64,000 nucleotides of DNA from an uncultured Nitrospiraceae bacterium (lineage in GTDB: Bacteria; Nitrospirota; Nitrospiria; Nitrospirales; Nitrospiraceae): the NCBI GenBank assembly GCA_963846575.1, contig CAWJWJ010000002.1, positions 1,856,001 to 1,920,000 of the forward strand, written 5' to 3'. The notes beneath the pieces are model-generated. The model ran no database searches. It was given only the letters and a program-made list of their open reading frames with translations, and was not told where the DNA came from. Shown here one piece after another: positions 14,151 through 28,953 of this stretch (the first letter of the stretch is position 1; each line of letters opens with the position of its first letter). A program made the translations under genes and the position numbers.

Positions 14151-14185
14151 AGAGTACCATGCCCGCGTGACATTCCGGGTCACGG
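14151..14185 (-). promoter_or_regulatory. putative WYL-regulator operator plus extended -10
   Basis: Minus strand CCGTGACCCGGAATGTCACG-CGGGCA-TGG-TACTCT; same architecture as 27868-27902. Confidence 0.7.
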
Positions 14186-14370
14186 TATGGGCAGAGCTGA
14201 GGCCGATGCAGACGAGTCACCCGTTTCGGCCCGGCTCGGCTCCCCTGTCTGCTGTCCTCGAAATCCGTTGCGGAGAAACGCTCCACCTTTCGTTGGCGGC
14301 GGCTATGCGGGTCCGACGAGACGACGCGAAAGGTTCCCGGAACGAAGCGGAAACCCTCGTGAATGTTTCT

Positions 14371-14399
14371 TTGCTCTCGGTGGCCCCACTCGTTAAGAT
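14371..14399 (+). promoter_or_regulatory. sigma70-like promoter of aceE
   Basis: TTGCTC-N17-TAAGAT. Confidence 0.5.
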
Positions 14400-14426
14400 G
14401 TGGACTATTCAACGGGGGCGTGACAC

Positions 14427-17114
14427 ATGAGCGACAACGATTCCGTTCCTCGACCGCAGGCCGACGACGATCCGCAGGAAACTCAGGAATGGCTGGATAG
14501 CCTCGAGTACGTGCTCGACGCCAAGGGCACCGACCGGGCCGGGTATCTGTTCGAGCGGCTCCGCGACCGGCTCGGCGCACGCGGCGCACCCGTGTCCGCT
14601 CCCTTCAACACGCCCTACGTCAACACGATCCCTGCGAGTGAGCAACCGCCTTACCCCGGCAATCTCGACATCGAACGGCGGATCCGGAGCTTCATTCGCT
14701 GGAACGCGATGGCGATGGTGGTGAAGGCCAACAAGCAGCGCCCCGGCATCGGCGGCCATATTTCGACCTATGCGTCGGCGGCCACGTTGTACGAGGTCGG
14801 CTTCAACCATTTTTTCCACGGCAAGGACGCGCCCCAGGGCGGCGATCTGGTCTACTTTCAGGGCCACGCGGTGCCCGGCATCTATGCGCGCAGTTACGTC
14901 GAGGGCCGGCTGCCGGAAGAGGCGCTGCACCACTTCCGCGGCGAGCTGAGCGGCGGCGGACGAGGCCTGTCTTCCTATCCGCATCCCTGGCTCATGCCCG
15001 ATTATTGGGAGTTCCCCACCGTATCCATGGGTCTCGGGCCCATCATGTCGATCTATCAGGCGCGCTACAACCGGTATCTTCAGGAGCGCGACCTCAAGGA
15101 TACGAGCCGGCAGCGGGTCTGGGCCTTCATCGGCGACGGCGAAACCGACGAACCGGAAAGTCTCGGAGCGATCACGCTGGCCTCCCGCGAACAGCTCGAC
15201 AATCTGACCTGGGTGGTGAACTGCAATCTCCAGCGCCTCGACGGGCCGGTGCGCGGCAACGGCAAGATCATCCAGGAGCTGGAAGCCATTTTCCGCGGCG
15301 CCGGCTGGAACGTCATCAAGGTGATCTGGGGCAGCGACTGGGATCCGTTGCTCGCGAAAGACCACGAAGGCCTGCTGGTGAAGCGGATGGGCGAGGTGGT
15401 CGACGGGTGGTATCAGAAGTACTCGGTGGAAGGCGGCGGGTTCGTGCGGAAACACTTTTTCGGCGCCGATCCGCGGCTGCTCGCGATGGTCGAGTCCTAC
15501 TCGGACGAACAGCTCCATAAGATGCTGCGCGGGGGCCATGATCCGCGCAAGGTGCATGCGGCCTACAAAGCGGCGGTCGAACACAAGGGGCAGCCGACCG
15601 TGATCCTGGCCAAGACGATCAAGGGCTACGGCCTGGGCGAAGCCGGCGAAGGGCGCAACGTCACGCATCAGCAGAAAAAGATGAACGAACATGAGCTGCG
15701 GGAGTTCCGCACGCGCTTCGGCGTGCCGGTGCCCGATGACCAGCTGGCCTCGACGCCGTTCTTCCGGCCACCGGACGGCAGTCCGGAGGCGGCCTATCTC
15801 CTCGAGCGGAGCAAGGCCATGGGCGGGCAGATCCCGGAACGGCGCGTGAAGGTGGAATCCCTGCAGACGCCGCCGCTCGAGGACTTCAAGGAGTTCGTGG
15901 AGGGCTCCGGCGACCGGGCGGTCTCGACGACGATGGGTTTCGCCCGCATGTTGGGACGCCTGCTCTCCCGCAAGGATGTCGGCAAACATCTCGTGCCGAT
16001 CATTCCAGACGAGGCGCGTACGTTCGGGCTCGAAGCGCTCTTCCGCCAATATGGGATCTATTCGCACATCGGCCAGCTCTACGAGCCGGCCGACAAGAGT
16101 TCCCTGCTCTATTATTTCGAAGCGACCAACGGGCAGATCCTGGAAGAAGGCATTACCGAAGCCGGCGCGATGTCGTCCTTCATCGCCGCGGGCACCGCCT
16201 ACGCTACGCATGCGCTCAATACCATTCCTTTTTACATTTATTATTCGATGTTCGGGTTTCAACGGGTCGGCGATTTGATCTGGGCCGCCTCCGACATGCG
16301 GGCCAGGGGGTTCCTGCTCGGCGCCACGGCGGGTCGGACCACGCTGGAAGGCGAAGGCCTGCAGCATCAGGACGGCCACAGCCATCTGCTCGCGAGCGCC
16401 GTGCCCAGGATGGCCGCCTACGACCCGGCCTTCATGTTCGAGCTGGCCGTGATTCTGCAGGACGGCATGAAGCGCATGTACCAGGATCAAGAAGACCTGT
16501 CCTACTACATCACGCTCTACAACGAGTCGTACCCCATGCCGCCCATGCCGCCGCAGGCGGAAGAAGGAATCCGGGAAGGCATGTATCGTTTCCGTCCGGC
16601 CCCGGCCCCCGGCAGGCATCGGGCGCATCTGCTGGCGAGCGGGCCGCTCGTCAACGAGGCGCTGCGGGCGCAGGAGCTGCTTCTCGAACGGTACGGCGTG
16701 GCGGCCGATGTCTGGAGCGTGACCAGCTACAAGACGCTGCGGTTCCGGACGCTCGAGGCCGAGCGCTGGAACATCCGGCATCCGGACGAGACGCCGCGCG
16801 TGAGCTACCTCCAAAAGACCGTCCCGGCGCTGGACGGCCCCTGCGTCGCGGTGAGCGATTACGTCCGCCTGGTGAGCGAGCAGATCGCCCCCTGGATACC
16901 GGGCGGGCTGCTGGCCCTGGGGACCGACGGCTTCGGCCGCAGCGATTCTCGCAAGGCCCTGCGCCGGTTCTTCGAGATCGACGCCGAACATCTCGCGGTG
17001 GCCACCCTCTACGCCCTGCATCGGCGGGACGGGCGGATCGACGCCAAAACGGTCAGGCAAGCGGCGCAGGATCTGGGTGTCGAAGGCGACGACCTGGCGC
17101 CCTGGCAGCGCTGA
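14427..17114 (+). CDS. aceE: pyruvate dehydrogenase E1, homodimeric type
   Basis: D.DPQETQEWLDSL, GGHISTYAS, GDGETDEPES TPP motif, GEGLQHQDG. Confidence 0.95.
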   Translation: MSDNDSVPRPQADDDPQETQEWLDSLEYVLDAKGTDRAGYLFERLRDRLGARGAPVSAPFNTPYVNTIPASEQPPYPGNLDIERRIRSFIRWNAMAMVVKANKQRPGIGGHISTYASAATLYEVGFNHFFHGKDAPQGGDLVYFQGHAVPGIYARSYVEGRLPEEALHHFRGELSGGGRGLSSYPHPWLMPDYWEFPTVSMGLGPIMSIYQARYNRYLQERDLKDTSRQRVWAFIGDGETDEPESLGAITLASREQLDNLTWVVNCNLQRLDGPVRGNGKIIQELEAIFRGAGWNVIKVIWGSDWDPLLAKDHEGLLVKRMGEVVDGWYQKYSVEGGGFVRKHFFGADPRLLAMVESYSDEQLHKMLRGGHDPRKVHAAYKAAVEHKGQPTVILAKTIKGYGLGEAGEGRNVTHQQKKMNEHELREFRTRFGVPVPDDQLASTPFFRPPDGSPEAAYLLERSKAMGGQIPERRVKVESLQTPPLEDFKEFVEGSGDRAVSTTMGFARMLGRLLSRKDVGKHLVPIIPDEARTFGLEALFRQYGIYSHIGQLYEPADKSSLLYYFEATNGQILEEGITEAGAMSSFIAAGTAYATHALNTIPFYIYYSMFGFQRVGDLIWAASDMRARGFLLGATAGRTTLEGEGLQHQDGHSHLLASAVPRMAAYDPAFMFELAVILQDGMKRMYQDQEDLSYYITLYNESYPMPPMPPQAEEGIREGMYRFRPAPAPGRHRAHLLASGPLVNEALRAQELLLERYGVAADVWSVTSYKTLRFRTLEAERWNIRHPDETPRVSYLQKTVPALDGPCVAVSDYVRLVSEQIAPWIPGGLLALGTDGFGRSDSRKALRRFFEIDAEHLAVATLYALHRRDGRIDAKTVRQAAQDLGVEGDDLAPWQR

Positions 17115-27805: not shown

Positions 27806-27867
27806 GGGATCCTCCTTTTCGGCCACCGGCCCCGGCATGGGGCCGGCAGGGTTCCAGGGCCTGCGGG

Positions 27868-27902
27868 ATGCTACCACGCCGCCGTGACATCGGAGGTCAC
27901 GG
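27868..27902 (-). promoter_or_regulatory. putative WYL-regulator operator plus extended -10
   Basis: Minus strand CCGTGACCTCCGATGTCACG-GCGGCG-TGG-TAGCAT. Confidence 0.75.
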
Positions 27903-27969
27903 TCACGCAGTATTTCTGTCCATTCCGGCCATGCGGGCTCGGGTCCCCCAACAACCAGTCCAGGAATTA

Positions 27970-28953
27970 TCATTCCTCAAGTATCAGTTGAGCTTCATGA
28001 CGCACGGCCAGGGCCAGGCTTTCCGGCCTGAGCACCTTGACCCCGCCCCCGAAGCTCAACACCCAGCCAACCACTTCCCTGCTGTCGGCCACCGAGAGGG
28101 TCATGCGCAGGCCACCGTTCTTCGTTCGTTTGCTCTGCTGCGTATCATGCCAGATTCGGTCCTTCGCCCAGGCGGCCGTCGCCTTCTCGAATTCCAGTTC
28201 CACGTCGATCCGCGGGCCGCGCATCACCGTCAGCGCATCCTGCACAAACGCGTCGAGATCGAAATGCAGAGGGACCTGGTAGGGATGGTCGGTCGGCGTG
28301 ACGGACTTAATGCGCTCCACGGCGAACAGGCGCGGTTCGCTACGCACATGGCAGTAGCCGATCAGATAGAGGCCGCCGGTCGCATACCACAGGCGGTAGG
28401 GATCCACCTCGCGCCTGGTGATCCGCCCGCGCGAGGCGGAGTCGTACCGCACCTGAATAGTGGTCTTGTCGGCGATGGCTCTCGTGAGCCGGTCGATCGT
28501 GTCGCGATGCTGCCGGTAGCGTTTGTGCGGGCCGAGCCCGACGCTGAACGTCCCGTCGAGTTGTTGAACCAGGGCGACGCCCTGCGGGGGCAGCGCGGCA
28601 GCGGCTTTCCCGAGTGCGGATTGCAGCGAGGTATGGAGTTCGGTGCCTTCGAGCGGCGTGATGAGCCGGCGGCTGAACGTGAGCGCCATCAGTTCCGAGG
28701 GAGAGAATCGCAACCCCGGCACGTTCCGGAATCCTTCCATGAGACGCCAGATGGTCTGCCCGTTGATCCGTTCGGTGACCAGCGGATAACCCGCTTCTTC
28801 CAATGCGGCGAGATCACGACGGAGGGTCCGGGGATGCCTCGTGGAGCCGGGCGCGAGCGAGTCCGCCAGCTGCTCCAGCGTCAGGCCTTGCCCCGACGCC
28901 TCCAATTGCTTGAGCACGACCAACAGACGAATAGCCTGATCGTTGCGCGGCAT
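27970..28953 (-). CDS. WYL-domain transcriptional regulator (wHTH-WYL-WCX; PafB/DriD-like)
   Basis: RTLRRDLAALEEAG HTH; R.VDPY.L...LYLIGYCH.R...R.F.VERI WYL; WVLSFG..VKVL.P WCX. Confidence 0.92.
   Translation of the reverse strand: MPRNDQAIRLLVVLKQLEASGQGLTLEQLADSLAPGSTRHPRTLRRDLAALEEAGYPLVTERINGQTIWRLMEGFRNVPGLRFSPSELMALTFSRRLITPLEGTELHTSLQSALGKAAAALPPQGVALVQQLDGTFSVGLGPHKRYRQHRDTIDRLTRAIADKTTIQVRYDSASRGRITRREVDPYRLWYATGGLYLIGYCHVRSEPRLFAVERIKSVTPTDHPYQVPLHFDLDAFVQDALTVMRGPRIDVELEFEKATAAWAKDRIWHDTQQSKRTKNGGLRMTLSVADSREVVGWVLSFGGGVKVLRPESLALAVRHEAQLILEE

Follow-up and report, generated by a model that had tools for sequence, protein, structure and literature searches.

Putative WYL-dependent promoters ahead of antiphage cassettes in Nitrospira and more distant bacteria

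Results

A promoter-like motif occurs twice near a WYL gene

The window analyzed here, a 64,000-nt stretch of DNA from an uncultured Nitrospiraceae bacterium (GenBank assembly GCA_963846575.1, contig CAWJWJ010000002.1, positions 1,856,001 to 1,920,000), contains two copies of a palindromic motif on its minus strand, at 27902-27868 (site A) and 14185-14151 (site B), and the gene for a WYL-domain transcription factor next to site A. We describe this motif, its occurrence relative to WYL genes in other genomes, and the genes that stand behind it, which point to a putative WYL-activated defense regulon. A preliminary description of the same stretch had reported both elements with 16 of 20 leading bases identical and equal spacing, and had placed a WYL gene, a secreted repeat protein, and a TM0106 nuclease-helicase around site A; all of these were located in the sequence as described. 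Over their full length, sites A and B share 25 of 35 bases. Their 60-nt flanks agree at just 19 and 16 of 60 positions and are unrelated; what recurs is therefore a motif, and an origin of the two sites by duplication of a segment was ruled out. The features at the two sites are as follows (window coordinates):

28991..28996, minus strand: likely -10 hexamer (TAGACT) of the WYL gene's own promoter, by presumed function
27970..28953, minus strand: WYL transcription factor of 327 aa with winged helix-turn-helix (wHTH), WYL, and WCX domains (Pfam HTH_11, WYL, and WCX)
27884..27900, minus strand: site A operator GTGAC-N7-GTCAC (pattern and matrix scans)
27868..27873, minus strand: site A -10 hexamer TAGCAT, a role proposed from consensus and conservation
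27365..27805, minus strand: first leader gene, NPYG, 146 aa, Asn/Pro/Ser/Gly-rich, with a signal-peptide-like N terminus
23917..27354, minus strand: TM0106 RecB-like nuclease with RNase_H_2 and SF1 helicase domains (TIGR03491, 2e-64; PADLOC MkoA, 7e-40 over part of the protein)
14167..14183, minus strand: site B operator GTGAC-N7-GTCAC (pattern and matrix scans)
14151..14156, minus strand: putative site B -10 hexamer TACTCT, at the same 12-nt spacing as at site A
13734..14045, minus strand: second leader gene, Cys103, 103 aa, no family match

The palindrome has the consensus (G)TGACC-N5-TGTCA(C), and at both sites its GTC triplet lies 12 nt before TA-N3-T. Site A lies 69 nt past the stop codon of the WYL gene, and its -10 hexamer lies 63 nt ahead of the leader's start codon. 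A search for a consensus -35/-10 promoter pair at sites A and B found none. We ran the genome scan that the preliminary description had proposed, and the 33-base pattern GTGAC-N7-GTCAC-N10-TA-N3-T gave exactly two matches in the 4.2-Mb genome, sites A and B; the palindrome alone occurs at ten sites, two of which fit the full strict pattern. With a position weight matrix (PWM) trained on 81 relatives' sites, A and B scored 33.5 and 29.4. The sole further genomic match above 12 was site A read on the opposite strand, and the reversed genome, used as a control, yielded one match at 12.3. A lone second half-site, ATGTCACGGG, was observed at 14126-14117 on the minus strand, 25 nt downstream of the site B -10.

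This genome has a single WYL gene. Its product matched only DriD and PafBC in the PDB and aligned with DriD over the full length (E value of 3e-14). Recognition-helix residues R42 and R46 are invariant in all 96 homologs aligned, and Y170, Y196, R208, and R214 are retained; DriD residues Y168, R178, Y192, and R204 align with Y170, R181, Y196, and R208. The position of DriD R207 is occupied by Ala211 (Ala in 95 of the 96 homologs), that of Y240 is nonaromatic, and that of R176 falls at an alignment gap. Upstream of the gene, CATCCTGGTAGACT recurs ahead of many WYL orthologs among the matches listed, and the gene's own promoter shows no operator at the spacing seen in the regulon.

The motif tracks WYL genes across genomes

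Among 36 genomes of the same genus, Nitrospira, a close WYL ortholog (at least 85% identity) was found in 34, and the strict pattern was present in those same 34; the control gave one match over 61 genomes. The two genomes without the strict pattern are the two without a close ortholog, which is weak evidence because their assemblies are fragmented (94% and 80% complete). In other families, the pattern occurred in 4 of 24 genomes, three times directly behind the WYL gene. A draw of 71 genomes from the family was scanned with a relaxed pattern, which was found in 30 of 35 WYL-positive versus 10 of 36 WYL-negative genomes, with control matches in 8 of 71; the Fisher P value of 9e-7 is overstated, because related genomes are not independent. 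Outside the genus, the relaxed pattern lay within 2 kb downstream of 22 of 29 WYL genes. The motif thus tracks the WYL orthologs, as expected from the preliminary description.

The survey was extended to 57 more distant WYL loci (58 to 82% identity), some of them in records with Binatia, Rokubacteria, Methylomirabilota, or deltaproteobacteria in the title. The core motif stood downstream of the WYL gene at 29 of these loci and upstream at one; the reversed control gave one match. The upstream half-site GACC was kept in all 29 sites, partly by construction of the pattern. A looser pattern recovered 20 of the 28 misses (control, 0), and 17 of these 20 sites, read by eye, keep the A and T of the -10 (positions -11 and -7) at equal spacing, often after TG. 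A second WYL clade, about 30% identical and separate in the tree (24 of 96 rows), carries its own variant of the motif with a pyrimidine-rich spacer, directly behind the WYL gene. On viral contigs, the 113 motif matches corresponded roughly to chance by our own estimate, and none was accompanied by WYL, leader, Cas, or restriction-modification (RM) matches.

One locus of near-identical layout (L080; G023:C1) has WYL, TM0106, and lpd in pieces and both motifs intact, which reflects either decay or an assembly error.

Leader genes and defense cassettes stand behind the motif

Of 109 site loci surveyed, 85 were binned as clade A. Here the first gene behind the motif was NPIN at 38 sites, Cys103 at 13, NPYG at 10, and another gene at 24; a leader gene thus came first at 61 of 85. 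NPIN (L051:1569-1949 and its homologs) is a second family of secreted Asn/Pro repeat proteins and the commonest first gene. It is often found in tandem, with copies that are partly broken and each have their own site, and was not found in the present genome with an L051-type query. Most genomic leader copies lie behind a site.

For cargo identification, 57 and 44 representative open reading frames (ORFs) of 403 were scanned. Further downstream of the motif stand Cas3 of types I-C, I-E, and I-G, Cas9, type I and type III RM systems, and others. After 22 clade-A sites with less than 3 kb of sequence had been set aside, the 65 sites with at least 3 kb downstream led to RM (34), Cas (23), TM0106 (3), or none of these (5). 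The reverse test was performed by coordinates alone. All 19 strong cas3 matches of the genus (at least 99.9 bits) lay 0.7 to 5.5 kb downstream of a motif on the same strand, as did 26 of 75 hsdM genes of the genus, and none of these cas3 or hsdM matches was upstream of or opposite to a motif. Five of eight further cas3 or cas3-like matches were also downstream; the three misses comprised one weak genus match and two strong matches in WYL-less genomes of another family. At the distant WYL loci, Cas or RM matches were found downstream in 24 of 34 cases and upstream in 0 of 40. Five genomes reached via titled loci contained three strong cas3 matches, all 1.8 to 3.4 kb behind a site, among them one in the genome of L176 (Nitrospira moscoviensis), and a fourth, weak match that was not behind a site. 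The distance from the motif to the first Cas or RM gene had a median of about 580 nt and was 350 nt or less for 10 of the 66 sites; a rough search for terminators placed a hairpin between them at 4 of 66. Clade-B sites head primase zinc-finger-like proteins and an AAA ATPase, followed by PDC-M15, Mrr-like, and GmrSD-like genes; Cas and RM matches were found at 0 of 21 of them.

Several other genes behind the motif were observed. At L082 to L094 (e.g., L084:6906-12906), loci of the second WYL clade, repeated genes have a twin-arginine-like N terminus fused to DnaG zinc-finger or primase N-terminal domains, and small ORFs of no assigned family and candidate defense genes are present. A protein which we take to be vWA-like (phrog_7371, E value of 7e-45; L176:7187-7879, L236:741-1430, and L256) is a recurrent first gene, preceding NPIN or NPYG and sometimes TM0106. 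Several Cas loci (L138:868-1200 and L170:8133-8405) encode, between the motif and cas3, a small protein that has a twin-arginine-like signal; the one that was scanned had no Pfam or PHROG match. At L116, the motif precedes a CRISPR-like repeat array, read from a repetitive translation only, with no Cas match within 6 kb.

The leader proteins and TM0106

The NPYG leader has no family in Pfam, NCBIfam, PADLOC, or PHROG and 1314 homologs at an E value of ≤0.001. Its fold was predicted confidently (mean predicted local distance difference test score [pLDDT] of 91.8) and consists almost entirely of loops. The best fold match had a Z score of 2.3 (root mean square deviation of 4.3 over 78 aligned residues), and Foldseek returned no PDB match and none with an E value of <0.001 in BFVD; such blanks do not show a new fold. 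Tblastn against plasmid and phage records found NPYG in three plasmid records and no phage, and the Cupriavidus match had no WYL gene within 5 kb. In Cys103, five cysteines (C13, C19, C37, C40, and C62) are invariant, which suggests metal binding; the model was of low confidence (pLDDT of 60.8; best Z score of 2.5) and does not establish a new fold, and tblastn found no plasmid match. The atlas clusters of both leaders are unnamed ones only. In G001 and L169, NPYG and Cys103 stand together behind a single promoter, and the leaders thus belong to one module. Co-induced envelope or signaling roles of the leaders would be guesses.

The TM0106 gene likely starts with a GTG codon 10 nt past the NPYG stop, contains catalytic-type motifs, and is also found behind NPYG in other genomes. 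It appears to be candidate defense cargo, recurrent yet swappable, rather than the core target.

Repair genes lack the motif

The genome encodes recA and two lexA-like genes, none of which has the motif upstream, and a PWM scan of the genome for a wider repair regulon found no site beyond A and B. A LexA box was rejected as the identity of the motif, since both lexA genes carry a different palindrome, GTAAC-N5-GTTAC. The WYL system therefore runs beside a separate LexA system, and its regulon looks defense-only. The preliminary description had pictured a LexA-independent DNA damage or antiphage response; LexA independence is supported, and of the two branches it is the antiphage one that finds support; no repair gene of this genome carries the motif.

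The palindrome GTAAC-N5-GTTAC lies just upstream of the lexA-like genes at G000:C2:948977 and G000:C2:2377288, outside the window. A single further exact copy occurs elsewhere in the genome, and none was seen upstream of recA; the palindrome is a candidate box for autoregulation by LexA-like repressors of Nitrospira.

Discussion

Proposed mechanism and its relation to known WYL regulators

Sites A and B probably represent sigma70-type promoters that are activated by the neighboring WYL protein and that head antiphage cassettes, not repair genes. We infer binding, the sign of regulation, the ligand, and read-through from sequence comparisons. According to this model, a WYL homodimer would be made constitutively, and single-stranded DNA (ssDNA) arising from phage infection, restricted DNA, or damage would be bound in the WYL/WCX pocket. 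Binding would free the wHTH domains, so that R42 and R46 could recognize the guanines in both GAC/GTC half-sites. Bound in this way, the dimer would cover the place of the absent -35 (approximately -39 to -23) and recruit RNA polymerase to the -10 in a DriD-like manner. The transcript would run through the leader gene (encoding a secreted Asn/Pro-rich protein or Cys103) into the cassette behind it, which would be type I-C, I-E, or I-G CRISPR-Cas, Cas9, or type I or III RM in relatives and, in this genome, the TM0106 nuclease-helicase and, within a decayed RM locus, an OLD/AriA-like ATPase.

The geometry has precedents. Two DriD promoters read GxC-N7-GxC-N12-CAA-N2-T, with the -10 assigned by us from the sequence and not from a figure, and the sites bound by DriD are described as covering the place of an absent -35, with a constant distance to the -10 (PMC13004042). 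PafBC uses an equal distance from GTC to the -10 on a half-site (PMC8635444). The guanines are read by R37 and R41 in DriD and by R47 and R51 in DdaA.

DriD of Caulobacter (PMC10853764, PMC13004042, and PMC9186387) has the same length of 327 aa, a GAC-N7-GTC operator over a missing -35, the 12-nt spacing to the -10 in these two promoters, and equivalents of its Y168, R178, Y192, and R204 in our protein. It differs in that its E40 is Arg, its R207 is Ala, and its Y240 is not retained here; its site is CGAC-N7-GTCG, whereas the outer base here is T and not C; its spacer is AT-rich, whereas that of clade A is GC-rich; and its regulon is described as didA, recA, recJ, bapE, and dnaG, not defense cassettes. 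DdaA of Acinetobacter and other Moraxellaceae (PMC12392091 and PMC13010146), the nearest precedent, is a homodimer-type wHTH-WYL-WCX regulator of similar size with i,i+4 helix arginines, two ssDNA-sensing tyrosines, and the first WYL arginine changed to Ala. It recognizes a GWC-N7-GWC palindrome, and its targets include RM and CRISPR-Cas, which are candidate targets here by their position. In contrast to our system, DdaA belongs to another phylum, takes the place of LexA, and activates recA, ssb, uvrA, and further genes, whereas LexA-like genes coexist with the WYL gene here and conserved uncharacterized leader genes are present. The outer bases also differ (TGACC-N5-TGTCA here versus CGWCA-N5-TGWCG), with agreement in the inner triplets and spacing, and DdaA sites are reported about 50 bp upstream of where transcription starts, whereas the center would be near -31 here if the -10 is right. 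The string "Nitrospir" had no match in the portion of the supplement text of PMC12392091 that was searched, and DdaA was compared by its described features.

Mycobacterial PafBC (PMC8635444) shares the GTC 12 nt before TA-N3-T, two guanine-reading arginines, and the lack of a -35. However, PafBC is a heterodimer that acts on a single nonpalindromic half-site (-26 element), needs polymerase for binding, and controls about 150 repair genes, in contrast to one WYL gene and a conserved palindrome here. SiwR of Mycobacterium smegmatis (PMC10693628) is likewise a WYL activator that acts as a homodimer, controls a small local regulon, and has its palindrome between -35 and -10, but differs in sequence, in its divergent gene layout, and in its DinB-like targets. 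The preliminary description had called the promoters PafBC/DriD-like; the DriD/DdaA type (homodimer, palindrome) fits better than the PafBC type (heterodimer, half-site), and a WYL-linked promoter of DriD geometry leading defense islands is supported by comparative genomics. Judged from sequence, the system is DriD-like in geometry and DdaA-like in targets and is neither DriD nor PafBC.

Observations that weigh against the model and alternative explanations

Several observations weigh against this model. The relaxed motif is found in WYL-negative genomes (10 of 36, compared to 8 of 71 genomes for the controls), and two WYL loci with Cas genes behind them (G094 and G122) fail the pattern. Outside the genus, a motif lies within 7 kb of only 9 of 21 cas3 genes (two of the genomes in this set are also among the five reached via titled loci), and 49 of 75 hsdM genes of the genus have no motif. 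Fourteen genus sites, nearly all Cas/Cys103, share one upstream neighbor, so the 19 of 19 count for cas3 reflects few loci and few independent events. A -10-like hexamer lies just upstream of several hsdM and hsdR genes, which therefore may not depend on the motif promoter, and four leader copies that were examined (L238 to L241) have no motif upstream. Finally, since the position of DriD R207 is Ala and the R207A exchange impairs DriD (PMC9186387), the ligand may differ from that of DriD; DdaA carries the same natural Arg-to-Ala change and retains its damage response (PMC12392091 and PMC13010146).

Part of this evidence would also fit a scenario in which WYL activates the small leader genes only and Cas and RM genes gather behind them at insertion hot spots under their own promoters. 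The high share of leaders among first genes, the separate hexamers ahead of hsd genes, the toxin-antitoxin and Fic genes that collect around WYL, and the many hsdM genes and half of the out-of-genus cas3 genes without a motif all favor it. We nevertheless consider it unlikely in view of the strict same-strand polarity, the scarcity of terminator-like hairpins, the different Cas subtypes behind the same promoter, and the intact motifs kept at sites with a missing or broken leader, where Cas3 or HsdM is the first gene (10 of 66 sites within 350 nt).

Repression, with release of WYL by ssDNA, would resemble CapW and BrxR, WYL regulators that are likewise tied to defense islands but, as far as described, repress their own operon. 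Such repressors have their operator within the promoter of the regulator gene itself, where it covers a working -35/-10. The overlap of the operator with the polymerase footprint and the nature of the targets, which would be typical of a WYL repressor as such regulons have been described in part, agree with this explanation; yet the sites offer no -35 for polymerase alone, the fixed 12-nt spacing is that of the activators DriD and PafBC, to which the PDB matches are confined, and the site lies downstream of the WYL gene and not in its own promoter (upstream in 1 of 57 distant loci), which makes repression quite improbable. That another factor (an alternative sigma factor or an unrelated regulator) reads the motif and WYL merely co-travels in defense islands would account for the matches in WYL-negative genomes but is highly improbable, as two divergent WYL clades each have the motif directly behind the gene and as the helix residues and GAC-N7-GTC geometry match three characterized WYL activators.

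Activation by the WYL protein thus being preferred, a broader and rather doubtful extension would be a WYL-inducible "immune expression platform" reaching from Nitrospira to several phyla, in which a promoter and a secreted Asn/Pro-rich leader of unmatched fold precede swappable CRISPR-Cas, RM, or uncharacterized cassettes. If true, the leaders would represent new immune factors that act at the envelope or from cell to cell, and the motif could serve as bait for new defense systems such as the TM0106 nuclease-helicase. The timing of CRISPR-Cas and restriction expression is known mostly from repressors. DdaA, the only WYL-activator precedent found in the sources consulted, couples defense to a whole repair regulon; the regulon of Nitrospira, a key nitrifier, would be the second example, found in a different phylum, seemingly defense-only and with an exact predicted operator and -10. 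No prior description of it was found in the open-access PMC and bioRxiv literature. Candidate immune genes that emerge from the analysis are three uncharacterized leader families, TM0106 nuclease-helicases, and the vWA-like gene.

The region between the sites and the site B cassette

The remaining features of the region are as follows:

14427..23826, strand not assigned: pyruvate dehydrogenase (PDH) operon (aceE, aceF, lpd, and lipB-like), beta-propeller gene, and Na:dicarboxylate symporter (Pfam), outside the regulon
13343..13634, minus strand: type I RM remnants (tblastx to intact hsdR and hsdS at the same site of genome G003)
13524-13634, minus strand: hsdR N-terminal stub (tblastx to G003)
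13343-13480, minus strand: hsdS C-terminal stub (PADLOC Specificity_I, 7e-07)
11458..13326, minus strand: OLD/AriA/GajA-like ABC-ATPase with TOPRIM-type motifs (PADLOC AriA, 1e-58; Old, 4e-27)
11152..11430, minus strand: hsdM remnant (11347-11430 matches the HsdM_N stretch of G003)

The preliminary description had also suggested that both sites once formed one island that was split by the PDH-symporter block. This idea was not supported. Several relatives have the symporter and propeller genes immediately after WYL, the two sites fall into promoter and leader classes that elsewhere are found at distinct loci, Cys103 is in most genomes preceded by a site of its own at another locus, and in G026 a different site with different cargo lies beyond PDH. 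A hot spot around which cassettes were gained repeatedly explains the arrangement no less well.

Behind the equivalent of site B, hsdR and hsdS are intact in G003. Here, the OLD/AriA-like gene is of low GC content (about 0.49) and sits between the hsdS and hsdM remnants, the latter including what is presumably a C-terminal stub; Cas and RM queries found no match in this genome at an E value of 1e-6. The hsdM remnant is followed by an ORF of 81 aa (10906-11151, minus strand; no PADLOC or NCBIfam match), which is low in GC and has a good ribosome-binding site. Just past the cassette lie genes for a MazG-like pyrophosphatase (8397-9071, minus strand) and a YdjM-like membrane hydrolase (9806-10375, minus strand); YdjM is SOS-linked in E. 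coli.

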